64,000 nt of DNA. Origin: Escherichia phage T5. Where the stretch lies: the sequence record NC_005859.1; one strand, 5' to 3'. The notes beneath the pieces were generated by a model, which saw only the letters and a program-made list of their open reading frames with translations, searched no databases and was not told the origin of the DNA. The position numbers and the translations under genes are program-made. How positions within the stretch are numbered: the stretch's first letter is position 1; each line of letters opens with the position of its first letter. Below, piece after piece: positions 23,931 to 60,010 of this stretch.

Positions 23931-24084
23931 ATTAAACCTTACTAGCAAGTAAAGAATTAACTACTTGGGTTAAGTCTGCTATTTGCTTTTTAAAATCTCT
24001 ATTAGACAATTAGCTGAGTGTTTGTCATATAATATTGCTATTGAATACCTAGCTCGATGATGTTTCCCTGTAAAATGCTATGTG

Positions 24085-24116
24085 AAAATAAAGGGGCCTA
24101 ATGACCCCTCTTTTTT
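24085..24116. terminator. bidirectional terminator-like hairpin at convergent junction
   Basis: aggggcc..gacccct hairpin flanked by A-run on one side and T-run on the other; directly 3' of tail fibre gene. Confidence 0.55.
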
Positions 24117-27100
24117 ACATACCTAATTTATCCTCAATTGCAGATAACCTCGCTTCAAATCCTTTTGCGATAAAAAGGTTTAACTCTTCAAGGCGGAATG
24201 AGTAATGATCGCCAGCCGGGATTGTTTTGTAGATCGGGTTTTCAGTTCCATCTTCATTTGCAGGGCCGTATTCAGAAACAACCGTATGTTCATCCCATTT
24301 GTCATAGCAGATGAAACCATATTTGAACGGATCAAGCCCAAAACTTTCCATGATCTCAATTGCACGCTGCACGGTCAAACCGCAGTGTTCGCGAATATCA
24401 TTCATGTCAGCTTGCTCCTTCCACGTCCAAAACCCAATCTCCTTCGCAATAGCTTTGGCCGCTTCGGTTTCAGGATCGCTCATGGCTCGAACATCGTTCT
24501 TCAATCTAGCATCGGAGGTGTTAATTGTACCATTTACGGCGTAAACCTGCTTAACCCTACCAGATCCCCAGCCTAAGTTATATCTGTTATCTGCCATCGG
24601 CATTAACGTTCCGTTATGGTCAACCCCCCACCGTGGGAGACGAGAGATGCTTCCAGACTCACATGTCTCCAACACAACCTGTGTTGGCGTTGAAGTTGGA
24701 CCCCACCCCCCAGCGGACTTAATTGCTACACTACCACGCATTGAGTCGAACTTCTCTCCATCATGACCAGACGCACCAATATAGAAAGTCGAACCGGGTT
24801 GTGTAGCGCCAATATATCGCGTCGTATCTGCTAGACTACCATCACACCACATAGCTCGAATAGCTGGCGCCGAGGCCCCAGAACCACGTGGCGCAATCAA
24901 GTCAATCTCTGGTGCCTGGGGTGCAACAATTTTCAGCCCTCGTCCATCCTGTATACTCGGGGCGTTAAACCTAGGCACAGCAGCATTTAGTGTTTCAATG
25001 CTACGCACCAACCCAAGATCTGAGTGCATAGCTCCATCTGGAACTAGCCAAAGATCTCCATTATCTGACAGTCTGAATGCCGGAACCCTATCGCTAATCG
25101 TCTTACCTTTAGGAGTGACAAGTAAACGAATCCACCCCCCGTGATTGGTTGCCGATGTATCGCCAGCCCCCAGGAAATGCAATGCTGCATTGCTATGTTC
25201 AGTATATGTAGAACCTAACCACGGGCGTGAACCATAACCACCTAAAAGCTGGTTGTTCTTCGTTACGCTATTGGACGCTCCGCGAGTGTAGTTATGGAAC
25301 ACGGCAGAACCTCCAGCCGTATTCTCAATACCAAAAGAACACTCCGTTGCGCTATCGCCGATAAAGTTAACGCCAATCCCGGTTGTCGCGGTTGTCTCCT
25401 TCAGTGGTAAGCTCTGTGACGCGGTAACATCAATCTCTTTGCTATTGACACCACCCTTAACAACCAAATCACCATTTGGTGAAAGAATCATCTGACCTTC
25501 CGATATCCCATCACCATTTGGTCGAAAATATATCATTTGACCAGCTTTTGCGCTAATGATTGGAGAGCCTGCATTGTTGCAACGAATTGCCGCACCTTGA
25601 CCAAATGAGATTTTTGTGTCTCCAGCGCTGGCCGATGTGCAAGAAATTTCAACCTGGTTATCTAGCGACGTTGCCCCCGCTGGACGAAGCTGCAATAGTC
25701 TATCAGTTCCGCCAGAGGAAGATAAAATCAATCTACCTTCACCACCTTCACGAACTATAGAGCCGCGACCAATTACGATCCCCTTATCAGACGATGGCAT
25801 TTTTGATGTAGCGCCGCCACCAACACCGAGGTTTCCGTTCAGAACGCCAGCGCCACCAACCGAAAGCTCATTACCAGACAGGCGACCTGATACGCTCATT
25901 GACTTAACACTCACATCTTGGTTCATGCCGCTGACAACAGACTCACGCCAGGCTGACCACGTGCCATTGCTACAATAACGTGTAAACTCACGATTTAAGT
26001 CAGTGCCAAAAAGTCGCTGGCGGTTAGTGAAATCAGTGTCACCCACTTTGCGGATTGACTCGACGTAAAGAATGAAGTTACCACCTATTCCGCTTGGCTT
26101 GTTGGTAATGTTGTTGCCGCCACCAGCACTAACGCACTGGTAAACACGAATCGACCCGGGATCGCTTTTCTTAATCATCAAGGAGTTAAGATCAAGTTCC
26201 TGGTCACTAATGTTTTTAGCCTCCCAAGGTCCGGCGAATCCATTAGTAAAATCCATTAGCCCAGCAACAGAGAAACCAGCATCCATCATCTTGCGCGTTA
26301 CAATCTTGCTGTTTTGTTTATGATCAGGATTCTCACCAAAAGCTAGATCTCCATCAATATCAATACCTAGAAGCTTTGCGTTCATGTTATTGAGCTTGAA
26401 TCCAACCGACACATTAGAATCTGAGTCGCGCACTAACATGATGGGCGTATGTTGCTTACCACTGACTCGCAGGTTTGTAGCAGCTGTGTTTGTGTCATCG
26501 TTGGAAAATTCAGCAGTCCGAGATGAGATCTTATAACTGATCTTTGCATCTTTCGCTTCGATTCGCCCATCGTGACGCACGATAAAATCTCCAGTACTGG
26601 TGCCGTCGGAAGTCTTAGCCCTGATGTGGATTTCGCCAAGTGAGCCATTGTTTGGTGGTGACCAAATAACACCGCGCTCGCCTCCGTCGTTGTTCATGAA
26701 CCACAGATGGGCGTTTCCTTGTGTTGATTTTAACCTGATAGACGGCGTTTCTTTCCGTATATCAAGATCACCTGACATAACATCGCCTGCTTTTTTCACC
26801 TGCGCATCGTTAGTTACGTTGCCAAGTCCAACGTCCGATTTCGACGGTTTGTTTGCCGTGCCGTAGAGAGTGTTGGCGTAAACAATGTCACTTGCAAGGT
26901 TGCGGTCAGTGGTTGCTAGCACCTTAACGATTCCAGTGTTGTACTGCACGTTAATTGCAGCATGGGTATCTCCGCAATGAGAGTAAAAGCCAGAACCGTG
27001 ATCGTTAATATCAACGTTTGCACCTGATTCGCGAGCCGCTCGCCAGTATTGACCGCCATTAGCTTTAAGCTTGTTGATCAAGTCTACGTTGCTCTGCACG

Positions 27101-28305
27101 GAGCTATAGGAAAGACCGTTACCGCCAAGACCGAAAGCGCCTACAAGCATAGCATTTTCAAGGCCCAAGTCTGCCTTAGTAGGCTTATTTACCTGGTCGT
27201 AAATCCTTGCGGCTAGGCTTTCAATAAATCCTGATGGTTGAGTATCTTGACTAACAAATCCTTCTGGAATGTATAATTCAGTCCTGCCAGTCTGTGCCAG
27301 TACTGCAACCCTTGTTTCTTTAATAAAGGCTCGCTGATAGCACCAGACTTCGAAATAGCCATCACCTTCTACAAGGCCGTAACGCAGTTGGTTATCCCAG
27401 GCAAGGTTTGGTGAACCGAGTCGGCGAACACTTAAAAATTTAGTTATATTTTCACTGGTTACCCCTCTTGCATCGTTAAGACCGCGAGCAGATATCTCTA
27501 CAAAGTCAATATTACCGTAACTTGAACCGTAGTTACCGCCATTTGTAATCATTAGCGTTAGGTGACAGCTTACTGCACCTGGATCGGTAAGTTTAGCTAT
27601 CTTGACGTAAACGCTATTGTTGTTTGTACCGACGGGCCAGTCGTATTGCGTTACTGGGCTTACGAGTTCACTTGCCATATCGAGATATTCTTTCGCCTTA
27701 TTCTCTGACGTTTTGGCATTGGTTTCGCTTGTTTTTGCTGCTGTCTCGCTTTTCTTTGCATTGGTTTCTGATGTTTTTGCTGCTGTGGCAGAGTTTGCAG
27801 CCGCTGTTTTTGATGCATCCGCCGCCTGAGCGCTATTACCAGCATTTGTTTCAGATGTTTTTGCGGCCCTCGCGGAATTTTCTGCCGCCGTTGCAAAGGA
27901 AGATGCGCTACTAGCACTTGATGCTGCGTTCGTTTCTGAAGTTTTTGCAGCATTTTTACTATTATTGGCGTTAGTCTCGGAAGTTTTTGCAGCTTTAGCA
28001 CTATTAGCAGAAGCAGTAGCAGAGGAGGCAGACTGAGTTGCAGATTGCTGAGAAGATGTTGCGGAAATTTCTGCCTCATTCTCAGAATCTTTGGCATTTA
28101 ACTCTGATTGCTTAGCATTAATTTCAGACTGCTTAGCTGCAGGGCCGGATGCTTTAGAAGACTCTATCGCAGAGGTTACGTCTGCAGCAGTAATAGAGCT
28201 AATGGAATTAGAAAGCACAACTGTATACTTAGGATATTTACTTGCAGTTATACTATTCTGGTCCATAGTGACCATTTGCTGTAGAATTATTTTAGTTATA
28301 GCCAT
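24115..28305 (-). CDS. ltf: L-shaped tail fibre protein (pb1-like) with C-terminal intramolecular chaperone domain
   Basis: 1396 aa, same length as T5 pb1; N-terminal AKTSETNA-type repeats; C-terminal ...AMSDPETEAAKAIAKEIGFWTWKE... chaperone/autoprotease-like segment. Confidence 0.85.
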   Translation of the reverse strand: MAITKIILQQMVTMDQNSITASKYPKYTVVLSNSISSITAADVTSAIESSKASGPAAKQSEINAKQSELNAKDSENEAEISATSSQQSATQSASSATASANSAKAAKTSETNANNSKNAAKTSETNAASSASSASSFATAAENSARAAKTSETNAGNSAQAADASKTAAANSATAAKTSETNAKKSETAAKTSETNAKTSENKAKEYLDMASELVSPVTQYDWPVGTNNNSVYVKIAKLTDPGAVSCHLTLMITNGGNYGSSYGNIDFVEISARGLNDARGVTSENITKFLSVRRLGSPNLAWDNQLRYGLVEGDGYFEVWCYQRAFIKETRVAVLAQTGRTELYIPEGFVSQDTQPSGFIESLAARIYDQVNKPTKADLGLENAMLVGAFGLGGNGLSYSSVQSNVDLINKLKANGGQYWRAARESGANVDINDHGSGFYSHCGDTHAAINVQYNTGIVKVLATTDRNLASDIVYANTLYGTANKPSKSDVGLGNVTNDAQVKKAGDVMSGDLDIRKETPSIRLKSTQGNAHLWFMNNDGGERGVIWSPPNNGSLGEIHIRAKTSDGTSTGDFIVRHDGRIEAKDAKISYKISSRTAEFSNDDTNTAATNLRVSGKQHTPIMLVRDSDSNVSVGFKLNNMNAKLLGIDIDGDLAFGENPDHKQNSKIVTRKMMDAGFSVAGLMDFTNGFAGPWEAKNISDQELDLNSLMIKKSDPGSIRVYQCVSAGGGNNITNKPSGIGGNFILYVESIRKVGDTDFTNRQRLFGTDLNREFTRYCSNGTWSAWRESVVSGMNQDVSVKSMSVSGRLSGNELSVGGAGVLNGNLGVGGGATSKMPSSDKGIVIGRGSIVREGGEGRLILSSSGGTDRLLQLRPAGATSLDNQVEISCTSASAGDTKISFGQGAAIRCNNAGSPIISAKAGQMIYFRPNGDGISEGQMILSPNGDLVVKGGVNSKEIDVTASQSLPLKETTATTGIGVNFIGDSATECSFGIENTAGGSAVFHNYTRGASNSVTKNNQLLGGYGSRPWLGSTYTEHSNAALHFLGAGDTSATNHGGWIRLLVTPKGKTISDRVPAFRLSDNGDLWLVPDGAMHSDLGLVRSIETLNAAVPRFNAPSIQDGRGLKIVAPQAPEIDLIAPRGSGASAPAIRAMWCDGSLADTTRYIGATQPGSTFYIGASGHDGEKFDSMRGSVAIKSAGGWGPTSTPTQVVLETCESGSISRLPRWGVDHNGTLMPMADNRYNLGWGSGRVKQVYAVNGTINTSDARLKNDVRAMSDPETEAAKAIAKEIGFWTWKEQADMNDIREHCGLTVQRAIEIMESFGLDPFKYGFICYDKWDEHTVVSEYGPANEDGTENPIYKTIPAGDHYSFRLEELNLFIAKGFEARLSAIEDKLGM
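27660..28100 (-). repeat. in-frame tandem coding repeats in tail fibre N-terminus
   Basis: reiterated gcattggtttc.gatgtttttgc.gctgt DNA units encoding AAKTSETNA-like peptide repeats. Confidence 0.7.
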
Positions 28306-34370: not shown

Positions 34371-37300
34371 TTAAGAATTACCAAGAGATTTCAGGGTGGT
34401 TCCATTCTCATTAAGAGCCAGTTCCACGGCATCTCTGAAAGCAGTACTGTTATTCGATGCAAAATCTCTGAAGCTTGCCGCATCCATAGTGCTGATATTC
34501 AGGATAATAGGTCTTCCAGAGGTAGTCTTTGATCCATCGGAAAGCTGATCATTAGGTGTAGCTTTCATAGGAACCATAGGAGTTACTACTTCGGTACCAT
34601 GCTCACCCATTTGATAACTAACTCCAGGGTACATCATACCGCCCTCAGCACGCGGAACAAATGAGTTGGCATTACCAATACCTTTATCACCGCGTAGGTA
34701 GGATAGTTCTCCTGAACTAGCTTGCATAGATACATCAACATTTTTCTGTCGCTCACCTAGAGTTAAGTACTGAGTAGTATCTGCCCCAGAATCCGCAATA
34801 GAAGACATGCCAGATGCAGAAGATGCTTGAGCAAGAGCTAACGCACCTGCTAAACCTGCCGCCACCATCAAAGGAATAGAGAACGGGTATGGTACAGCTG
34901 TTGCTGCTTGCATTACTGCTACTGCTGTCTGAATGATGATCTGTTTCTTAGCTGCATCTTGCTGAATCTTCAGCTTTTCAGCTTCTAATTTTTTCAGCTT
35001 AGCTTTAGATGCCTCAGATTTGCCATCACGCTTCTGTTCTGCTGCAATAGCCTGATCAATTGCACTAACCTGCTGACTAGTACTGTATTGAATCATAGAA
35101 GCTACAGTCTGCATACCGGAAGCAATCATAGACGTAGTATCTAAAGATCCCTGAGAGAACTGAATCATAGCATTAGTTAAATTACCCATGCTTTGAGCCA
35201 CAGCGGTTGCTTCGGAATTTAATTCAGACAACTTAGAGATCGCCTGGTCATAAGAAGCCATTCTATTTTGCATATCAGCAAAATCTTTATCTTCTCCGAT
35301 TAACCCAGTAGTAGGAGTATAAGTAGCCCCAACAGAAGATCCTACCTGTTGCTGCATTTGACTTTCTCGCTGCTTTTTAAGCTGCTCTAAAGCTGCTGAA
35401 GTTTTATAAATCTCATTACGATACTTAAGCTCCTCTTCCGTATTACCCTTAGATAGTTCCAGCTGTTGCTGGAGAATGGATAATCTCTCCGTAAGAATTT
35501 GAGATTGACCAGTAACATTTCTCTGCGTTTGACTGACCTCTAGTGCATCCATGAGGGCTGATACATGTGAGGCTGTTCCCTGTTTCTCCGCTTCCCATAT
35601 TTCTCTACTTATTTGTGCTTGAGCACGTCTAGACTGCTCTACTTTAGCTTGACCATCCGCTTGTTTAGAGTATAATTCCGTTTTTTCCTGCTCTAACTGC
35701 AGCTCTAGTCTTAACTGCGCCAAACGATACTGAGTACTCGTCATAGTGCGGTCATTCAGAAGAGCTATTTCTCTATCAACACCAAGAATCTTATCAGTAT
35801 AGTCTTTAGTCTTCTTAGCATTTTCGAATCCCTGGGCTTTAGTATTAAGAATTTCTGTCTCTATCTTAGCTACTTGTTTTAATGCTTCGGGATCATTAGG
35901 GTTAATAGCTAGCAACGCTTTTGCCGCCGTAAGCTGTTCCTGCTGTTGTCGTAGTAACACCTCTCTAGCTGCTGCTTCTGCCTTGGCCTTATCCTTAGTC
36001 TGGTTGTAAACCTCATCTTTACGCTTAGCTACTTCCAGTGCATTTTGCTCACTCTTATCCATAGCAGTTACATATTCTGATAGACCTTTCTGTGCAGCCT
36101 TCATTTGGTCTAGGCTTGAGAAACCTAGATTTAGGTTCTTAACTAGAGTATCCGCACTTTGCCCGGTTACTTTAGAAGTATCTTCTACTGCTTTTACAAC
36201 ACTATTTAGGTCACTAGAGGCTTTTTTAGCGTTAGTAATACTACTTGCCGCCATTCTTATGTTATTTGCAGTATCACTAGAGCTTTTCTTCAGGAAATCA
36301 AAGTTCTTCTGTATCTCTGATACAGCTTTGAGGTTATTAGGATCAACTTCGAATACTCCTTTGTCTCCTGGAACAGCAGTATCAGCATACTTCATCTTAG
36401 CGCCTAACTGCTCAGCTAGTTTGCCATTACGTAACAGAGCTTCTCCAGTATCCTGTACCGCTTGTCTTAGAACCTTCTCAGTTTTAGTGCGTTCTTCTAT
36501 CTCTTTGTTTTGACGAGCCAATTCATTAGTGAGTTGTACTACTAACTTATTACTCTCATCACCACCAATACCGCCAGCAGTAAGGGCATTGGCGATAGGA
36601 GCAGTAGCCGCCTGTTTTGCCTTAAGATCATCCAATTGCTGCTTAAGCTCTTGAGCTTTCTTAACACGTTCTTCGCTTTCTTTAAGATATGTATCTAGAT
36701 CTTCTCGCGCCCCTACAGCATTCTCTATTAAAGCTGTAACGTTTTCAGCTGGAGTAGTTTTAGCGGATGCACTACGTGCCATTGCGGAAACTCTCATCTG
36801 GGAAGATTTAGTTTGGTATAAGAAAGTATTAAGGGTATCCATAACAGGATTTAAGTATGTAGCAGCACTTTGTTGTAAACTTCTTAGAGCTGAGTTAGCA
36901 TTGGCAGCAAATTGTTCCCAAGAGGTTGCCTTAAGAGCATCATCTAGGTATCCAAATCTACGAGTAGACTCTGCAATAACTTCATTTGCATACGCTTGTT
37001 GTTTCTGGTATGTAGTTAAACTATCTACAGTATATTTAATACCTGTACTGGTAGCATTTAATTGTTTAACGTAATTTTCATACGCATCGTTAAGACGAAT
37101 AGTAACACCAAGTTCATCCAGAAGTTCGATTTCTTGTTTTGATACACCCTTAATTACACGGTTAAGTGCATCAGTCATATCAACACCAAGAACAGCAGCC
37201 GCACGACGTGCTACTAAACCGAACTGCTCTAGTTGTTCGCTGTCAAATCCATAAGCGGAAGCAGAGGATGCTTGACGCATAGCCTCTTCAAAGGATATAG

Positions 37301-38030
37301 CACCATTAGTAGCGTTTTGTAGTGATAAAGCTAGTGTCTGTACCGGTGTACCTGTCATGGTGCCGACAATAGTACCGAACTGTTCCAGCCTATTTAGCTG
37401 GTCACCTACTTTTAGGCTCTCAAAAGCAGTCTGTAGGACGAATACGTTAGAAGCAAGAGCTGCGTACATAATAGGTAACCTACCGCCGATCTTAGCCATT
37501 GCTGCAAAGTCACGAGTAGCTCCGCGTGCGGAACCGGAAGTATTACCTAAAGCTCTAGAAGCCCTACCAGCAGCACCAGCAGTGTCATTAAAACCCTTAG
37601 ATGTACCACCTAAAGCTCTATTGGTGTCATACAATCTATCTTGAACTTTCTCTGTTGCAGCTGCAACATCATTACCCATTGCTTTAACAGATCTAGAAAC
37701 CCCATCGAATCCAATTTCTAGTTTATCTGTTACTTCAATAAGTTGGATAGCCAGGTAATCTAGCTTATCACCAATACCATCAATGGATTTAGTGATACCA
37801 GCCATACCCCTACTAGCCTGCATTTTAGTAAGACTTTTTGCTGCTCTATCTGCTGCCCTCTCAATGGAGTATAGAGTTCTGGGCATTTTACCTAACTGTT
37901 CATTTGTCAGTTCGGAAGCAGCAGCAGCATTTTCTAATGCATCAGATACGTTTTCAATAGACTTTGCAGTACGGGTTGCCCCCTTCTGTTTAACGTCTAT
38001 TAGTAATTCTCGTATTAGCTTATCAGTCAT
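34371..38030 (-). CDS. tape measure protein (pb2-like)
   Basis: 1219 aa, same length as T5 pb2; long coiled-coil; hydrophobic segment near C-terminus. Confidence 0.85.
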   Translation of the reverse strand: MTDKLIRELLIDVKQKGATRTAKSIENVSDALENAAAASELTNEQLGKMPRTLYSIERAADRAAKSLTKMQASRGMAGITKSIDGIGDKLDYLAIQLIEVTDKLEIGFDGVSRSVKAMGNDVAAATEKVQDRLYDTNRALGGTSKGFNDTAGAAGRASRALGNTSGSARGATRDFAAMAKIGGRLPIMYAALASNVFVLQTAFESLKVGDQLNRLEQFGTIVGTMTGTPVQTLALSLQNATNGAISFEEAMRQASSASAYGFDSEQLEQFGLVARRAAAVLGVDMTDALNRVIKGVSKQEIELLDELGVTIRLNDAYENYVKQLNATSTGIKYTVDSLTTYQKQQAYANEVIAESTRRFGYLDDALKATSWEQFAANANSALRSLQQSAATYLNPVMDTLNTFLYQTKSSQMRVSAMARSASAKTTPAENVTALIENAVGAREDLDTYLKESEERVKKAQELKQQLDDLKAKQAATAPIANALTAGGIGGDESNKLVVQLTNELARQNKEIEERTKTEKVLRQAVQDTGEALLRNGKLAEQLGAKMKYADTAVPGDKGVFEVDPNNLKAVSEIQKNFDFLKKSSSDTANNIRMAASSITNAKKASSDLNSVVKAVEDTSKVTGQSADTLVKNLNLGFSSLDQMKAAQKGLSEYVTAMDKSEQNALEVAKRKDEVYNQTKDKAKAEAAAREVLLRQQQEQLTAAKALLAINPNDPEALKQVAKIETEILNTKAQGFENAKKTKDYTDKILGVDREIALLNDRTMTSTQYRLAQLRLELQLEQEKTELYSKQADGQAKVEQSRRAQAQISREIWEAEKQGTASHVSALMDALEVSQTQRNVTGQSQILTERLSILQQQLELSKGNTEEELKYRNEIYKTSAALEQLKKQRESQMQQQVGSSVGATYTPTTGLIGEDKDFADMQNRMASYDQAISKLSELNSEATAVAQSMGNLTNAMIQFSQGSLDTTSMIASGMQTVASMIQYSTSQQVSAIDQAIAAEQKRDGKSEASKAKLKKLEAEKLKIQQDAAKKQIIIQTAVAVMQAATAVPYPFSIPLMVAAGLAGALALAQASSASGMSSIADSGADTTQYLTLGERQKNVDVSMQASSGELSYLRGDKGIGNANSFVPRAEGGMMYPGVSYQMGEHGTEVVTPMVPMKATPNDQLSDGSKTTSGRPIILNISTMDAASFRDFASNNSTAFRDAVELALNENGTTLKSLGNS

Positions 38031-38839
38031 CTAATGTTTTCCTGTATAAAACTATTAGTTAAAGATAGTATAGTTTCTAGCTCAGAGTAGTGACAAGTTT
38101 CGGTGTACCCATCTGGAAGGATACGTTTATCTAATACTCCTGTGTTTACTGAGTCCTTTACTACTTTTTCTAGCCCCCTAGCCATAGAACCATAAGAAAA
38201 AGTATGAGAAAAAATTACCGAGTGCTCGCATAGTGATTTATTGCTCTGCTGCCTCATTCTCTCTAGTACATCCTTACCAGTGATCCCAAATTTTAGAAAG
38301 TGAGTCCCTTGATACGTTAATTTCTGTATATAAAAAGTAGCTGGTATATTAGGATTAAATCCTCCTGAAGCACAATCAGGACACCCTGTATCGTGATTAA
38401 TAAAATGGTGTATAGACACATCCCAGATACAACCATCTTTTAAACACTTAAGTATAATCTTAGAATCTTTATTAATATAGGTGGAAGACCAAGATAGAAA
38501 GTTATATCCTTTCTCGGCACACTTACTTTTTATTTGTTCTTCTCTTTCTTCCTTCGTCCATCTAGCTTTGCCTGCGCATGCAGGGCATTTTTGGGCAGTA
38601 ATCCGTAAAAAGTTATCCAACCTAGGAGACCAGGTGTAATAACATTTATTACACTTAAGTGTAAGGGTGCTTTTAATATTAGTGTACTCACCTATCCAGC
38701 CAACAAAGGATAAATTTTTATCATTGCAAATGTTGCTTATCTGAGACTCTCTATCCTGTTTAGTAATCTTCTTTCCCATACTATACCAACCTATATGTTT
38801 ATAAATAAAAAAGGCTCTGGGCATATCACCCAGAGCCAA
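38027..38839 (-). CDS. putative homing endonuclease-like protein (two zinc-ribbon modules, T5orf172/GIY-YIG-like C-terminus)
   Basis: 270 aa; two CxxC...CPxC modules; paralog of 48023..48856. Confidence 0.55.
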   Translation of the reverse strand: MALGDMPRAFFIYKHIGWYSMGKKITKQDRESQISNICNDKNLSFVGWIGEYTNIKSTLTLKCNKCYYTWSPRLDNFLRITAQKCPACAGKARWTKEEREEQIKSKCAEKGYNFLSWSSTYINKDSKIILKCLKDGCIWDVSIHHFINHDTGCPDCASGGFNPNIPATFYIQKLTYQGTHFLKFGITGKDVLERMRQQSNKSLCEHSVIFSHTFSYGSMARGLEKVVKDSVNTGVLDKRILPDGYTETCHYSELETILSLTNSFIQENIR

Positions 38840-38873
38840 GCCTCATCGTGGAACGCCCCATTGGAGGAAACTT

Positions 38874-39242
38874 TTACCGTGCTCGAGATTTGGCATGTGG
38901 CTTAACGTTAGGTATTCTACCGTTTTGCGGCTTATGCTTCTCAGCACGTTTACGTGCAGCGTCTACAGCTTTAGCATCAAATATATTGATAATGTGTAGA
39001 ACAAATTCTTTCTCTATAGGATCTGTAATCCCATAAATATCAAATAAAACACCTAAAGCAGCCTTGTCTTTACCTATAAAGATAGGGAAGTCACCAGGTA
39101 TGAAACAGTCAACTAGACTATTATAAATATTCATACTAATAGCTACAATAGGTGGAAAGTCTTCAAGTTCAACAGGCATGGCCTTAGGATCAGGCTCTAT
39201 ACCCATTGATTCACAAAGTATTAAATATTGTTGTTTAGTCAT
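38874..39242 (-). CDS. putative tail assembly chaperone
   Basis: 122-aa acidic ORF upstream of tape measure region; position-based. Confidence 0.4.
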   Translation of the reverse strand: MTKQQYLILCESMGIEPDPKAMPVELEDFPPIVAISMNIYNSLVDCFIPGDFPIFIGKDKAALGVLFDIYGITDPIEKEFVLHIINIFDAKAVDAARKRAEKHKPQNGRIPNVKPHAKSRAR

Positions 39243-39303: not shown

Positions 39304-39708
39304 TTACGCTTTTGAGCTACGAAAAGTATCTAGGTGGAACACTGTCTGGTTGATCCAAGAATCAAACGCAGCAGAGTTCTGCATAAGCATTACAGCATTA
39401 TCACGACTAAATGGAACTTCAGTAGCAGGATCAGCATCTGTTTCAATCAGCATCAGTTTTTCAACGTCACCTACAGTCAAACCAGTCCAACCTTTAATCG
39501 CAGCATCAACGAAAGCTTCAATAAACTTATCATCATCCTGTACCTGAATCAAAGTACCATTAACCCACTCGTCACGCTTAGCAGAGGTGATAACTCGTTT
39601 AGAAGTAGCACGAGACATATAATTAAGCTCTAGCTTAAAGTTTGGCATACCTGGGTATGAAAGAGTGACAGTACGAGTTTCTAAAGTAATATCTTTTAAG
39701 TTAATCAT
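39304..39708 (-). CDS. hypothetical tail-associated protein
   Basis: 134-aa ORF between tail tube and chaperone genes. Confidence 0.5.
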   Translation of the reverse strand: MINLKDITLETRTVTLSYPGMPNFKLELNYMSRATSKRVITSAKRDEWVNGTLIQVQDDDKFIEAFVDAAIKGWTGLTVGDVEKLMLIETDADPATEVPFSRDNAVMLMQNSAAFDSWINQTVFHLDTFRSSKA

Positions 39709-43798: not shown

Positions 43799-43810
43799 TT
43801 ATTTTTCCCA

Positions 43811-43838
43811 ATAAAAAAGGAGAGCCGAAGCTCTCCTT
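43811..43838 (-). terminator. rho-independent terminator after major capsid gene
   Basis: minus-strand hairpin aaggagagc-ttcg-gctctcctt followed by TTTTTTATT. Confidence 0.8.
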
Positions 43839-43857
43839 ATCGGCTGAAAAGCCTGTA

Positions 43858-46384: not shown

Positions 46385-47596
46385 TTAATCTCCCTCGGTG
46401 GAACCTTTAGGTCTACCACCTTCTTGACCAGATACACCTGTTGCAGAACCAGCGACGTTAGCAGGAATACGGATCTTATTCATCTGCTCATCATCTAAAG
46501 GCTCCAGGTTCAGCTCTGAACGAGCTTCGTTACCGGTTATAATACCATTATTAACCAATGAGGTTAAATGTTTAGCCTCTGCTTCTTTATCTGGTGTTAA
46601 TGCTGCGACTTCCTTAGTATTAGGAGTGATCTTATAACCAAAAAAGAAAGTAAGAGAACTAGTCAGTTTGTTCAGCATAGGAATGATAGTCATATAATAG
46701 AACAATTCGATGTTTGGTCGAATATTCGCATTATTACCACCATCAAGCAGTACTTGCGGAACTCCAAAGGCTAGACAAATAGATTTATTAAACCCTTCTA
46801 TGTCTTCCTTAAAGTCTAGATCTTTAAAAGAGGATATTTGGGAGTACGGTTTAGCTTTCATACCACCATCTAGAATCAGGACAGAGGACTGACCCGTACT
46901 AGGATTATAATCGAGTTGTAATTCTTCTTGTTTACGCTCACGCAATTTCTTGTTCAGGATTTCATCCGTCTCAAGAATAAGACCAATCACGGTTCCGTTA
47001 TCGAGGAATTTCTCTTTAAAGTTAAGCATCTTAGAACGCTTCTCAAGAGAATCAATAACAGTAGCAACACGAGATTGGCCAGAAATTTGAGAGTTTGTGC
47101 CACACACGTAACTGTTATCCTTTATAAAGATAATCTCATCTACGCGATAGTTTATCTGATTATTAAATATAAATTTTTTGATAAACTTATTGGCATCTGC
47201 CTCGACCTGCATAAGAGCGGCCGGGACATGGTAAAGCGATGTGCCATCCCAATAGATGTATGCACAACCTTCAAAAAGTAGGTCAGTGACTACAAGTCTA
47301 CGGAATGTGCTTATATCCATGAATGGATTAGGTCGTACATTTAAGAGAGTGTCTAGAGTCTTTGTTTTGACGCCATTAGCGTACGTAACAATATTATATT
47401 TATCTCCGACAGTATAAGAACACTCCGCCGCACTATCTATAACCATATTAGCAGTTCTATTGAGAATCTCAATTTTACTGTAGGCTTGTCCAGTGGTAAA
47501 AGGCTTACGGTTAGTGCGATGACTAACTGGTTCCATGTCTCTTATAATACGTTGACCCGGATTTAGCTTTTCAGTAATCCAGCTTTTAAAACCCAT
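46385..47596 (-). CDS. portal protein (pb7-like)
   Basis: 403 aa, same length as T5 pb7; between terminase and protease. Confidence 0.8.
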   Translation of the reverse strand: MGFKSWITEKLNPGQRIIRDMEPVSHRTNRKPFTTGQAYSKIEILNRTANMVIDSAAECSYTVGDKYNIVTYANGVKTKTLDTLLNVRPNPFMDISTFRRLVVTDLLFEGCAYIYWDGTSLYHVPAALMQVEADANKFIKKFIFNNQINYRVDEIIFIKDNSYVCGTNSQISGQSRVATVIDSLEKRSKMLNFKEKFLDNGTVIGLILETDEILNKKLRERKQEELQLDYNPSTGQSSVLILDGGMKAKPYSQISSFKDLDFKEDIEGFNKSICLAFGVPQVLLDGGNNANIRPNIELFYYMTIIPMLNKLTSSLTFFFGYKITPNTKEVAALTPDKEAEAKHLTSLVNNGIITGNEARSELNLEPLDDEQMNKIRIPANVAGSATGVSGQEGGRPKGSTEGD

Positions 47597-48048
47597 TATA
47601 AGAACCTTGCGAATCCTGATTTTGTTTCAGTCTTGACTTGTGTCTTTTCTTGAGGATTCTGTATTTTGTCTTTCTGCTTTTGAACCCATGCTTTCTGTTT
47701 ATTAGCAGAAAATAATGGAGGTTCTTTCGTGTAAACCTTATGTAATAATTGGTGATGGTGCTGGCACAATGTTACCACGTCCCTAACTAACTCATGCTCA
47801 TATTTCTTGTAGAATGCTTCCCTATTTGAAAGGACGATATTCTCATCAGTGAAATCCAGCTGGAGTTCTTTAGCAAATTTTTTTATTAGCTGAGATATAG
47901 TATGATAGTGATGAAGTTCTAGGTCTTCACTACTACCACATATAGCACAGCAACCATCCTTACTATACCTAGATTTTATACCATCCCTCATTATGGAAAT
48001 GGCATCACGTTTGTACTTAGTATTAGTGGCCATACTCCTCCAATCCAA
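47596..48048 (-). CDS. HNH endonuclease
   Basis: 150 aa; CxxC...HHYH...HHHQLLH zinc/HNH motifs. Confidence 0.7.
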   Translation of the reverse strand: MDWRSMATNTKYKRDAISIMRDGIKSRYSKDGCCAICGSSEDLELHHYHTISQLIKKFAKELQLDFTDENIVLSNREAFYKKYEHELVRDVVTLCQHHHQLLHKVYTKEPPLFSANKQKAWVQKQKDKIQNPQEKTQVKTETKSGFARFL

Positions 48049-48856
48049 AGCTATTTAGAAAGATTACTATATCCTCAGGAGCAACATTAAAAAATTCCGT
48101 GCTTCCTGTAAAATTAGAAAACCCACAGTTTTTATTATAATATTCTCTGTGAACTTCCTTTTCTAAATCTAAAGCAGTCTCTCTATCTGGCAGATGATAC
48201 ATGGTGAACAAGTACAGGTCAGAAAATCCAGATTCTCTTTTAACTTCATTCAACCGTTTCTCGGGATATAAGCTTATGCCTACTTTAGTACCGCTAGAGA
48301 AGGACATGATATAGAGGAATCCACCATTCTCCCACTTAAGAGAACAATAAGGACATCTCTTACCTTGAGTCAATCCATCTAAGGTAATGAAACAGTCATG
48401 CCCATTATTGCAGCGTAGATGTAGTTTTGTTTTAGCATTAGTATAGCTGCTTAACAGAGTATACCCTATATTAGATATTCTGTTACTAACTTCATCTAAC
48501 GATATTGTATTATTGGAGCAGTGTGGACAACCTCTCCTCATATGGAGTATAGAATGTGGTGTTGCTTCCCAAACGTGTGCTCTCTGGCATTTAAATACTG
48601 TTTTTGTACGTTGGTTTACATATTCACCGACAATTTGGATTCCACGATCAGCTAATCTAATATTTATATCTTTTATTGTTAGCTTTTGTCGACCCATAGA
48701 ATCTCCTACACCCATGTAGAGCATTAATTTTTCTTGTTTACGTTCTATTATGGGAGAAGTTCTCCCGATCAATGAATATAGTATACATAATCGTATCGAA
48801 TTTGTAAAGGGGATTTTAAAATACAGGAATGGGATACCAACTGAGTAGTATCCCAT
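48023..48856 (-). CDS. putative homing endonuclease-like protein (two zinc-ribbon modules, T5orf172/GIY-YIG-like C-terminus)
   Basis: 277 aa; KCQRAHVW...GCPHCS and RCNNGH...RCPYCS modules; paralog of 38027..38839. Confidence 0.55.
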   Translation of the reverse strand: MGYYSVGIPFLYFKIPFTNSIRLCILYSLIGRTSPIIERKQEKLMLYMGVGDSMGRQKLTIKDINIRLADRGIQIVGEYVNQRTKTVFKCQRAHVWEATPHSILHMRRGCPHCSNNTISLDEVSNRISNIGYTLLSSYTNAKTKLHLRCNNGHDCFITLDGLTQGKRCPYCSLKWENGGFLYIMSFSSGTKVGISLYPEKRLNEVKRESGFSDLYLFTMYHLPDRETALDLEKEVHREYYNKNCGFSNFTGSTEFFNVAPEDIVIFLNSFGLEEYGH

Positions 48857-48867
48857 CCTATACTTAT

Positions 48868-58699: not shown

Positions 58700-59191
58700 A
58701 TCGTCGATTCCTTATAATATATAAGTTTACCGCCGATAGACTTTAAGATGTACCCAATTTTTAAAGAGCGTGGCGGTAAACTTCCCGCCGTGTAGTTCGT
58801 CATTGCCGCCCTACGAGATAAATAATAGGGGATACCCAAAAATGGCGCAACCTTATTTTTGTAAAGAAACGTAAAGAAGGCAACACGTCCGGCGCTCACC
58901 TAAGTTTAAAGGAAACGGGCGCGCGAATACCATAAAACCTAGCAGGTTGGCAAGTAATTTTTTCCTTTATATTTGCCTTGCCCTAGTTGACAAATCTTAG
59001 AAAGCTCGTGGTGACGATAAACGGGTTATCCCCTTATGATGGGATGCCTGAAAAATTTACCGCGTCAGAAAGCGTTTTAGGCGGCTTATTTTCGATTTAA
59101 CAAATATTTAACAAAAGCAAAATTGAAAAATAGTTGGAAAAGATATTGACTTTTAAAAATCAAGACTAAACGAGTTATTTTATAAAATTAA

Positions 59192-59710
59192 TTAATTGAC
59201 AATTCCAAATTCAGCTTTTTTAGTTTCTACCCATAATAATAACTCTTGTAAATCATAACCTGATTTACTAACACTTTTGTTACTAGTAGGATCTTTAACT
59301 ATAGCGCGCAAATAGTTTCTTCCGTTATTATCAACTCTAGAACCATTATAATAGATATGCTTAGGCAACTTATTAGCACGCTTATAATCTTTCTTGTTAT
59401 TCATATTCTGCTTATGGTCTACTAAGCGAAGATTATTAATGTTATTATTAGCACGGTTACGATCATTATGATCGATTGTTAGATTGCTATCAATCTCACC
59501 ATTAAATAATACCCATATTATTCTATGCACTGCGTATTGTTCGCCTGCTAACTTTACTCGATAGTAACCTGTGTTACTATAATGCCCTGCAATATCACCC
59601 ACCTTACTATTACCTTTCTGTACTTTCCATCTTAGAAATGATGGGGATGTTTCATCATAATAAAAGTTATCATTAGCAAGCGAATAATCTATATCTTTAA
59701 ATAGACCCAT
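59192..59710 (-). CDS. HNH homing endonuclease with AP2-like domain
   Basis: 172 aa; AVHRIIW...IDHNDRNRANNNINNLR...HKQN HNH motif; third member of the family at 4556 and 11864. Confidence 0.7.
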   Translation of the reverse strand: MGLFKDIDYSLANDNFYYDETSPSFLRWKVQKGNSKVGDIAGHYSNTGYYRVKLAGEQYAVHRIIWVLFNGEIDSNLTIDHNDRNRANNNINNLRLVDHKQNMNNKKDYKRANKLPKHIYYNGSRVDNNGRNYLRAIVKDPTSNKSVSKSGYDLQELLLWVETKKAEFGIVN

Positions 59711-59876
59711 TGTTATAGTTTCCTTATGTTATTAATTTAATCTCTATTATATTATATCAAAACCATTAGCAAACTACCTAATGAGTTTTTCAGGTTTAAT
59801 TAGCAGACTCATAATCACTTTAAAATCCTATTAGCCAACTAACTATATTTTGTTATATAATAACTGCATAAATTAG

Positions 59877-60010
59877 TTAGTGAGAAACACTATCATTTAA
59901 GTTATCCACAGCCTTATACATTTTGTAAATTAACTTGACACAATAGGAAGGCTTTATAGCACTTTTACACAGACTTATCCACAGGTTATTCCACTGTATA
60001 AATATACAGG
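59877..60010. repeat. left arm of ~130-bp imperfect inverted repeat, with DnaA boxes and 16-bp palindrome
   Basis: TTATCCACA at 59903-59911 and 59975-59983; palindrome ctgtataaatatacag 59994-60009; reverse complement aligns by eye with 63192-63320. Confidence 0.65.

Follow-up and report, generated by a model that had tools for sequence, protein, structure and literature searches.

Escherichia phage T5 carries, between its tail-assembly chaperone genes and its tape-measure gene, a small gene, T5.141, that is probably a free-standing homing endonuclease gene, active now or until recently, of the CapR zinc-finger/T5orf172 type, within the GIY-YIG superfamily. We analysed it in a 64,000-nucleotide stretch of the T5 genome (sequence record NC_005859.1; hereafter the window, whose positions are used throughout), where the coding sequence occupies 38027..38779 on the minus strand (250 amino acids plus stop, from the open reading frame (ORF) list and public gene calls), the same strand as its domains, its neighbours and the second-site genes described below. 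This interpretation is carried by the architecture and fold of the encoded protein, the conservation of its putative catalytic residues, the boundaries of the inserted segment, its rare occupancy among T5-like phages and the near-identity of the gene across diverged genomic backgrounds. From these, and by analogy with other phage enzymes, we infer nuclease activity, a target site and homing.

T5.141 lies in an inserted segment that few T5-like phages carry

Aligning T5 with the gene-less T5-like phages Bf23, GEC_vB_N5, VAH1, ESCO30 and HildyBeyeler placed T5.141 within a T5-specific inserted segment of 773 bp (38031..38803), which T5 and IrisVonRoten carry where the compared gene-less phages have 14 bp (GGGAAAAATAAAWT). 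Identity with the gene-less phages runs through the T tract of the terminator that follows the chaperone genes (...TTTTTTATT) and resumes at the ATG of the tape-measure gene, pb2, and wherever the 5' end of pb2 has diverged too far for megablast to align it, the match starts at query position 1305, which is window position 38804. On the pb2 side, sequence and ORF coordinates reveal an ATGA overlap between the endonuclease stop (TGA) and the pb2 start (ATG) at 38027..38030, where the empty site reads TTATTGGGAAAAATAAATTATG. The last T5.141 codons (CAGGAAAACATTAG) sit at the pb2 ribosome-binding region and resemble the sequence that was replaced, the empty junction in Bf23 and HildyBeyeler being ...CCTTTTTTATTGGGAAAAATAAATTATGACTGATAAG....

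We surveyed occupancy with a 2.3-kb query around T5.141, which is 100% identical to the T5 records AY587007 and AY692264 and matched 444 T5-like (Tequintavirus and related) records. This insertion site (site 1) was occupied in only 4 of the 444, namely T5 twice (AY587007, AY692264) and IrisVonRoten twice (GenBank and RefSeq), and besides these one metagenomic contig carries T5.141 at the same place. Among the top 40 records, 35 gene-less ones had a site of empty length (about 1540 bp), the exception being NBSal005 (1668 bp in three pieces), while in a set of 60 evenly spaced records all 36 gene-less ones with both flanks aligned had an empty-length site as well (about 1505-1541 bp). A related gene elsewhere in T5 (site 2, described below) is far more widespread, being present in 72 of 442 T5-like records and absent from Bf23. 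As an observation in its own right, the tape-measure 5' region of NBSal005 (L015, MN994504.1 24876-26543) exceeds that of other gene-less relatives by about 127 nt and is split by its annotation into two coding sequences (CDS), which points to an indel or a frameshift in pb2 or to an error of sequencing.

Comparing the carriers with one another, we found that the gene is far more alike than its surroundings: between T5 and IrisVonRoten, 3 of its 773 positions differ, compared with 43 of 1000 in the 500-bp flanks adjoining it (Fisher p 2.6e-8). The third carrier, L017, which comes from a public sequencing run, is 90% identical overall and has a tape measure of 1225 amino acids, possesses a gene that is 99.6-100% identical, with flanks at 94-96% and tape-measure DNA down to 70-80%. 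Across the three carriers the protein shows a single amino-acid difference. One gene recurring at one site in diverged backgrounds, with divergence stepping up at its borders, is the pattern expected from recent lateral spread by homing. The converse history, an ancestral gene lost 440 times, was rejected as unparsimonious and because the gene is nearly identical where its flanks have diverged.

Substitutions specific to the occupied genomes were absent from the first 100 nt of pb2 and from about 150 nt upstream, and a target spanning the insertion point is therefore favoured. An extra G and a terminator-loop A were considered as marks of an immunised target and rejected, both being shared with gene-less HildyBeyeler. 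That phage (L014) has the extra G (TGGGGCG) and the loop A (GATATG) in common with T5 and IrisVonRoten (window 38785..38840), the other four gene-less phages compared having neither, and the two shared letters may be a trace of the lineage where the insertion originated, or of past recombination.

The C-terminal domain is a divergent member of the GIY-YIG/T5orf172 group

Profile comparisons, conserved residues and a structure model all point to a GIY-YIG/T5orf172-like nuclease domain in residues 138-250 of T5.141 (38030..38368). In Pfam, the whole protein matched neither T5orf172 (PF10544) nor MUG113 (PF13455) at E<=1, the C-terminal 113 residues gave no match to MUG113, and close homologues of T5.141 likewise fall below both thresholds. 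End to end, the protein matches phrog_681 'endonuclease' at E 1.7e-68. A hidden Markov model (HMM) of the C-terminal domain only matched the site-2 protein at its C-terminus (E 5.3e-7), the next window ORF scoring 0.098, and hhalign of a 54-sequence C-terminal profile against the T5orf172 domain of that protein gave 89.8% probability (E 1.8e-6). An exhaustive HMMER search of 1.8 billion representatives with the domain, which superseded a word-indexed protein search with 5 matches only, returned 471 clusters (at 50% identity) at E<=1e-3, with the domain almost always C-terminal.

Among 105 aligned homologues (22-40% identical to T5.141), 32 match MUG113 and 15 match T5orf172 at E<=0.01. Eight positions, Y150, K163, G165, R174, E204, G224, E227 and T228, are invariant in these homologues and present in T5.141. 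They correspond to the tyrosine of the GIY motif, a KFGIT version of the YIG strand, the arginine of helix 1 and two glutamates, of which E227, judged by its position, is the likely metal ligand.

AlphaFold2 (AF2) modelled full-length T5.141 confidently throughout (predicted local distance difference test, pLDDT, 95.8) and the C-terminal domain by itself at pLDDT 96.9 and a predicted template modelling score (pTM) of 0.89. The strands (E) and helices (H) of the latter model, E10-19, E22-30, H34-44, E48-57, H60-73, E91-93 and H94-112, give the strand-strand-helix-strand-helix-(short strand)-helix order of the GIY-YIG fold. Against viral models, Foldseek returned 194 matches at E<=1e-3, with names among them that include 'CapR homology domain-containing protein', 'Homing endonuclease', 'GIY-YIG domain-containing protein' and 'Bacteriophage T5 Orf172 DNA-binding domain-containing protein'. 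The Slx1/HIGLE GIY-YIG nucleases (7wme, 6seh, 7cq2), structure-specific enzymes of eukaryotic repair with a RING-type zinc finger after the nuclease domain, share 13-17% identity with the C-terminal domain, a likeness of fold and not of family, and further GIY-YIG matches were PD-T4-3 (4.7), EF2693 (4.7), AtGRXS16 (4.0), I-TevI (4.0), UvrC (3.6) and Eco29kI (3.6).

Profile homology, family spread and the AF2 fold thus place the domain in the GIY-YIG/T5orf172 group as a putative nuclease. Within that group it is a divergent branch, with the signature KFGIT...R...LE..IK...PDGYTET, that fails the Pfam thresholds of both T5orf172 and MUG113, and Pfam-based surveys would therefore miss T5.141. Counted by the 471 clusters above, this KFGIT...PDGYTET branch would be a sizeable nuclease clade that such surveys undercount.

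Two zinc-finger repeats precede the nuclease domain

The N-terminal half of T5.141 contains two CapR domains (PF21817; 85.7 bits against a gathering cut-off of 24.2, E 2.5e-24), and DUF4379 treble-clef matches are also present in these zinc ribbons. Repeat 1 (about residues 1-70; 38570..38779; CNKC...CPAC), with a DUF4379 match at residues 41-71, is modelled by AF2, at pLDDT above 90, with helices at 7-20 and 54-59 and strands at 23-29 and 38-43. Repeat 2 (about residues 71-137; 38369..38569; CLKDGC...CPDC) contains the best PF21817 stretch, residues 79-137, and is modelled as helix 76-90, three strands and helix 123-128. Read from the sequence, each repeat has four cysteines in two pairs as putative zinc ligands, and C65, C68, C112 and C133 are at least 90% conserved among the 105 homologues, 71 of which match CapR. 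Sequence-specific DNA binding by a CapR domain is known for one protein only, CapR of PLE, an element resembling phage-inducible chromosomal islands (PMC8096241, PMC10448857).

The coding sequence begins inside the inserted segment

An earlier, sequence-only reading of the window took the protein to be 270 amino acids long. We confirmed the underlying minus-strand ORF, 38027..38839, in the window ORF list, and we correct the product to 250 amino acids. ATG 38779 is the first start codon within T5-specific DNA, it is the start used in public gene calls, and the cluster representative P0001 ('hypothetical protein T5.141 / Putative endonuclease') begins there too, with an N-terminus that reads MGKKIT.... 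The preceding 20 codons of the mechanical ORF (38780..38839) are a spurious extension that overlaps the terminator hairpin and DNA common to gene-less phages. Two longer products, the 270-residue ORF from TTG 38839 and the 265-residue CDS of AY587007 from ATG 38824, were rejected because both starts fall inside this terminator, which phages without the gene have kept. The terminator itself (38807..38837; terminator scan, 11-bp stem and T tract, hairpin proper 38813..38837) is Rho-independent, lies after the chaperone genes and directly upstream of the insertion, and is retained as non-coding DNA in all compared T5-like phages, with annotations in the T5, Bf23 and VAH1 records. Public labels for the gene range from 'RB49ORF238c-like hypothetical protein' (AY587007) to 'Putative endonuclease' (UniRef) and, for the 99.6% identical orthologue of IrisVonRoten, 'putative homing endonuclease'.

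A second, distantly related gene occupies another site in T5

The second T5 member of this family (site 2; 48023..48697) encodes two CapR repeats followed by a MUG113/T5orf172 domain, probably in 224 amino acids from M54 (MGRQKL...). Its protein is recognised in Pfam (MUG113 1.9e-8, T5orf172 3.6e-8, CapR 3.4e-8, with DUF4379 treble-clef matches as well), and it matches phrog_681 at 1.8e-60 over the same profile positions as T5.141. The sequence-only reading had proposed that both proteins share a layout of two zinc ribbons and a GIY-YIG/T5orf172-like domain, and the PHROG matches in register, the CapR domains and the C-terminal HMM bear this out. Aligned directly, the two proteins are 25% identical by BLASTP (E 2e-6) over the zinc-ribbon halves only, with cross-matches between repeats, and in phmmer searches among all stop-to-stop window ORFs of at least 60 amino acids each protein finds only the other (E 1e-7 and 2e-8). 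Both detectable similarity and, in the AF2 model, a nuclease-type fold were found, contrary to what that reading had named as its refutation. After the LE motif, the Lys of T5.141 is a His in the site-2 protein, which also reads TEFF in place of TETC.

The term 'paralog', used in the sequence-only reading, overstates this relationship. T5.141 has closer relatives than the site-2 protein among those encoded by T4-like, Aeromonas, Klebsiella and Vibrio phages (31-47% identity), and intragenomic duplication was rejected on this ground. What survives of the proposal that T5 carries two copies of the same putative mobile nuclease is that it carries two related ones, which are distant relatives and not a recent duplicate pair; from their sequences, they look like independent acquisitions from one large family.

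At site 2, Bf23 has about 18 bp (ACAGTTGAGGAGAACACT) where T5 carries about 738 bp (48771..48034), the borders being the conserved hairpin/promoter region after terL on one side and ATG 48033 of an HNH gene on the other. Down to about 48772, and with the hairpin after terL included, T5 DNA is 99% identical to that of Bf23, which is without the site-2 gene. The 277-residue site-2 ORF is over-extended, its ATG 48856 falling in this conserved terL-proximal intergenic DNA, and M54 at 48697 (MGRQKL..., comparable to MGKKIT... at the start of T5.141) is the probable start. A gene starting in the same way, given as 'starts with MGRQKLTIKD' from a prokka call, is the T5 T5orf172 homing endonuclease gene (HEG) of Table S4 in Barth et al. 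2023, and it is the only T5 gene among the entries of that table that are listed (PMC10448857). The absence of T5.141 from the listed entries is probably explained by the Pfam threshold and is not proof of its absence from the table.

Both T5 genes are inserted, relative to related phages, between otherwise adjacent genes of the structural module, as had been claimed. For site 2 the insertion stands, but the interrupted pair is terL and a conserved HNH gene that precedes the portal gene, not terminase and portal directly. This HNH gene (47596..48033; 145 amino acids from ATG 48033; phrog_8048 HNH at 2.1e-7; CxxC...HH) has its start overlapped for 11 nt by the 3' end of the site-2 gene (ATGGCCACTAA), and Bf23 keeps an orthologue, annotated 'nicking endonuclease' as in other relatives, though it is without the T5orf172 gene. 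The site-2 gene repeats the style of the T5.141 insertion, with an intergenic hairpin immediately before it and the next gene's start codon directly at its end. For the HNH ORF, given mechanically as 47596..48048, the true start is probably ATG 48033 and not TTG 48048. Separately, the terL-proximal intergenic region (window 48773..48867; L010:2369-2449), which contains the hairpin GGGATAC...GTATCCC, is 99% identical between T5 and Bf23, and the Bf23 record marks a promoter in it as 'absent in T5 phage' despite this identity.

Relatives occur at other sites and in other phages

Homologues of T5.141 lie in intergenic positions beside essential genes of other phages, at places classic for homing endonucleases: between the neck protein and gp15 genes of Cronobacter phage Cronuts (annotated GIY-YIG nuclease), in thyX-proximal DNA of Aeromonas PhAER-4 and in the gene 32-frd region in both RB49 and FL04. 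In T4 relatives, the surroundings of gene 32 are a hot spot for Seg-type genes. A third site in T5-like phages lies between the major capsid and head-completion genes, where NR01 carries NR01_0079, a 190-residue homologue (36% identical to T5.141) with one CapR repeat and the same C-terminal domain. There the HildyBeyeler copy has decayed into three small ORFs and T5 itself is empty (window 43799..43857; loci compared L006:2498-3070 and L007:2498-3068). Such a pattern of invasion and decay among relatives is typical of homing endonuclease genes.

Repeat number varies among these relatives, with RB49ORF239c (L008:1754-3211; 485 amino acids) and the FL04 relative (L005:2030-3244; 404 amino acids) placing three or four CapR repeats ahead of this C-terminal domain, which illustrates the repeat expansion and contraction described for the CapR/T5orf172 family. 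The AY587007 note names RB49ORF238c, and the tblastn match in RB49 falls in the neighbouring RB49ORF239c (AY343333 numbering).

Genomic neighbourhood

Downstream of T5.141 lies the gene for the tape measure and pore-forming tail tip protein pb2 (34371..38030; 1219 amino acids; annotations and Pfam TMP_N plus TMP_C), and upstream are ORFs of 122 (38874..39242) and 134 (39304..39708) amino acids, which are tape-measure or tail-assembly chaperones in related records. Beyond the chaperone ORFs follow the baseplate tube, tail tube pb6, capsid, portal and terminase genes. Elsewhere in the window, G+C content rises to a block of 45-48% at 24001..28000, against about 38%, with a sign flip in GC skew near 24000, where gene orientation switches, and falls to a trough of 30% over 1 kb at 59001..60000.

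T5.141 compared with known systems

Barth, Dunham and Seed (2023) described T5orf172 HEGs, a GIY-YIG subfamily, as mostly possessing one or more CapR/DUF723/DUF4397 zinc-finger repeats, as enriched in ICP1, T5-like and other lineages, and as clustering near terminase, capsid and other essential genes (PMC10448857). Genes of this class (ICP1 gp165 and gp174, and those of T5-like, Plateaulake- and VpaJT-like phages) resemble T5.141 in their N-terminal tandem zinc fingers ('beads on a string') and C-terminal GIY-YIG-superfamily nuclease, and likewise in being free-standing, intergenic, situated beside essential structural or terminase genes and patchy among close relatives. Work on BF23 attributes most differences among T5-like genomes to homing endonuclease genes (PMC10644984).

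Odn (Gp88) of ICP1 is the only T5orf172 nuclease that we found to be proven biochemically, and its activity is abolished by E180A (PMC8263062). In both Odn and T5.141 a T5orf172/GIY-YIG-type catalytic domain, with its Arg and Glu conserved, is joined to a distinct DNA-binding module, but in Odn that module is a RepA_N domain, captured and directed against the origin of a satellite, whereas T5.141 has CapR zinc fingers; Odn is a domesticated defence gene, whereas T5.141 behaves as a selfish insertion. PLE CapR, in turn, is the capsid-operon repressor of a Vibrio cholerae satellite, acts on the capsid operon of ICP1 (PMC8096241), and derives from the DNA-binding part of T5orf172-type HEGs (PMC8096241, PMC10448857). 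It shares with T5.141 the zinc-finger domain that names PF21817, and of the two only T5.141 keeps an intact nuclease domain. The free-standing T4 enzymes SegA-G and the intron-encoded I-TevI have in common with T5.141 a modular design of nuclease and DNA-binding parts, a place between genes and presence/absence polymorphism. Their domains come in the opposite order, however, with the nuclease N-terminal in I-TevI and Seg and C-terminal in T5.141, their DNA-binding parts are helix-turn-helix or NUMOD modules instead of zinc fingers, and sequence similarity to T5.141 is undetectable outside the core motifs.

In architecture, fold, conserved residues and genomic behaviour T5.141 fits the described class of T5orf172 HEGs, the one formal miss being the Pfam score of its nuclease domain. 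Much of this was already known, in that T5.141 is annotated as a putative (homing) endonuclease and the architecture of its family is published, and we see no departure from the described kind.

A homing model and its rivals

Drawing by analogy on T4 Seg and Mob enzymes and on the T5orf172 genes of ICP1, we envisage that in a mixed infection with a gene-less T5-like phage the tandem zinc-finger repeats of T5.141 would bind at or near the chaperone/tape-measure junction of the empty allele, and that the C-terminal GIY-YIG-type domain would cut that allele there. Recombinational repair from the T5 copy would then move the 773-bp gene into the recipient, while T5 would probably be protected by the insertion splitting its target.

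Several points weigh against T5.141 being such a homing gene. Biochemical or genetic tests of T5.141 were not found in the literature searched. The last 113 amino acids by themselves miss the T5orf172 cut-off (E 0.073; 14.0 bits against 20), sequence searches of the PDB with the protein and with an 8-sequence C-terminal profile gave nothing useful, and Foldseek of the whole three-domain model against the PDB gave no significant match. The equivalence of E227, just before the last helix, to the metal-binding glutamates E75 of I-TevI and E180 of Odn is a putative one, drawn from its secondary-structure position. As to expression, sigma-70-like promoter matches did not exceed shuffled expectation, none lay between the terminator and the ATG, and a strong Shine-Dalgarno motif upstream of the ATG was absent as judged by eye only. 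As to lateral spread, a 400-bp pb2 stretch nearby is also 99% identical between T5 and IrisVonRoten, and, T5-like genomes being mosaics, the conserved block could stem from ordinary recombination and not from nuclease-driven homing.

Three other accounts of the gene have to be set beside homing. That T5.141 is an active nuclease kept chiefly for inter-phage competition, degrading or excluding co-infecting T5-like genomes or satellites in the manner of Odn, seems unlikely to us. T4 Seg and Mob enzymes do cause marker exclusion, as is established in T4 genetics. Furthermore, Odn is a T5orf172 nuclease repurposed against satellites (PMC8263062), and nuclease genes mark recombination boundaries between phages (PMC10448857). 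Competition nevertheless overlaps largely with homing, since the same cut yields exclusion and homing, and an identical gene at an identical site in three diverged backgrounds is a prediction of self-copying; the DNA-binding part of T5.141, moreover, consists of the usual CapR repeats and not of a captured satellite or replication-initiator domain as in Odn. Still harder to credit is a domesticated or catalytically dead relative that acts as a zinc-finger DNA-binding regulator, as PLE CapR does on the ICP1 capsid operon and I-TevI on its own promoter, which both repress, and might tune the adjoining tape-measure gene. CapR itself is a repressor derived from a homing endonuclease, with the same DNA-binding domain (PMC8096241; PMC10448857), and T5.141 does sit directly on the pb2 translation start through the ATGA overlap, with a nuclease domain under the Pfam threshold. 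CapR-type regulators, however, are without a nuclease domain, whereas T5.141 keeps a full one with all the family-invariant residues (Y150, R174, E204, E227); 440 of 444 T5-like records are without the gene yet express the same tape-measure operon, so that it cannot be needed; and the discontinuity in conservation at the gene borders points to lateral spread.

We consider it very improbable that T5.141 is a decaying relic, once mobile and now inactive, that is kept only because its removal would disturb the pb2 start region. Homing endonuclease genes do typically degenerate after fixation, as the HildyBeyeler copy at the capsid/head-completion site, broken into three ORFs, exemplifies, and the lack of a strong Shine-Dalgarno motif by eye and of a promoter above chance would suit a relic. 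Yet the reading frame of T5.141 is intact with all invariant residues and zinc ligands kept, its three carriers differ by one amino acid, the AF2 model is confident throughout, and an occupancy of 4 in 444 is the opposite of a fixed, post-invasion state. Homing by an active or recently active nuclease gene is the explanation that we prefer.

Significance

The only mildly unusual feature is that both T5 genes lie directly on the start codon of the downstream gene, which makes translational coupling a candidate idea. It is conceivable, if doubtful, that both T5 endonuclease genes came to rest with their final codons in place of the next gene's ribosome-binding region and with their stop overlapping its start, either as an 'addictive' integration or as a dual nuclease and regulator like I-TevI. 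If this were true, downstream translation would be tied to the selfish gene, merely deleting the element would carry a cost, and the insertions would not be neutral passengers.

These findings are of little importance outside annotation. They fix the start codon of T5.141 (250 amino acids), and probably that of the site-2 gene too. Clean empty and occupied alleles are now documented, and T5 with Bf23 or T5 with HildyBeyeler would be convenient pairs for following homing by a T5orf172-type enzyme; to our knowledge, direct homing data are scarce for enzymes of this type. With the Pfam-invisible C-terminus of T5.141 placed in the GIY-YIG/T5orf172 fold, surveys of phage homing endonucleases that depend on Pfam thresholds are seen to miss a divergent branch of this family with hundreds of sequence clusters.

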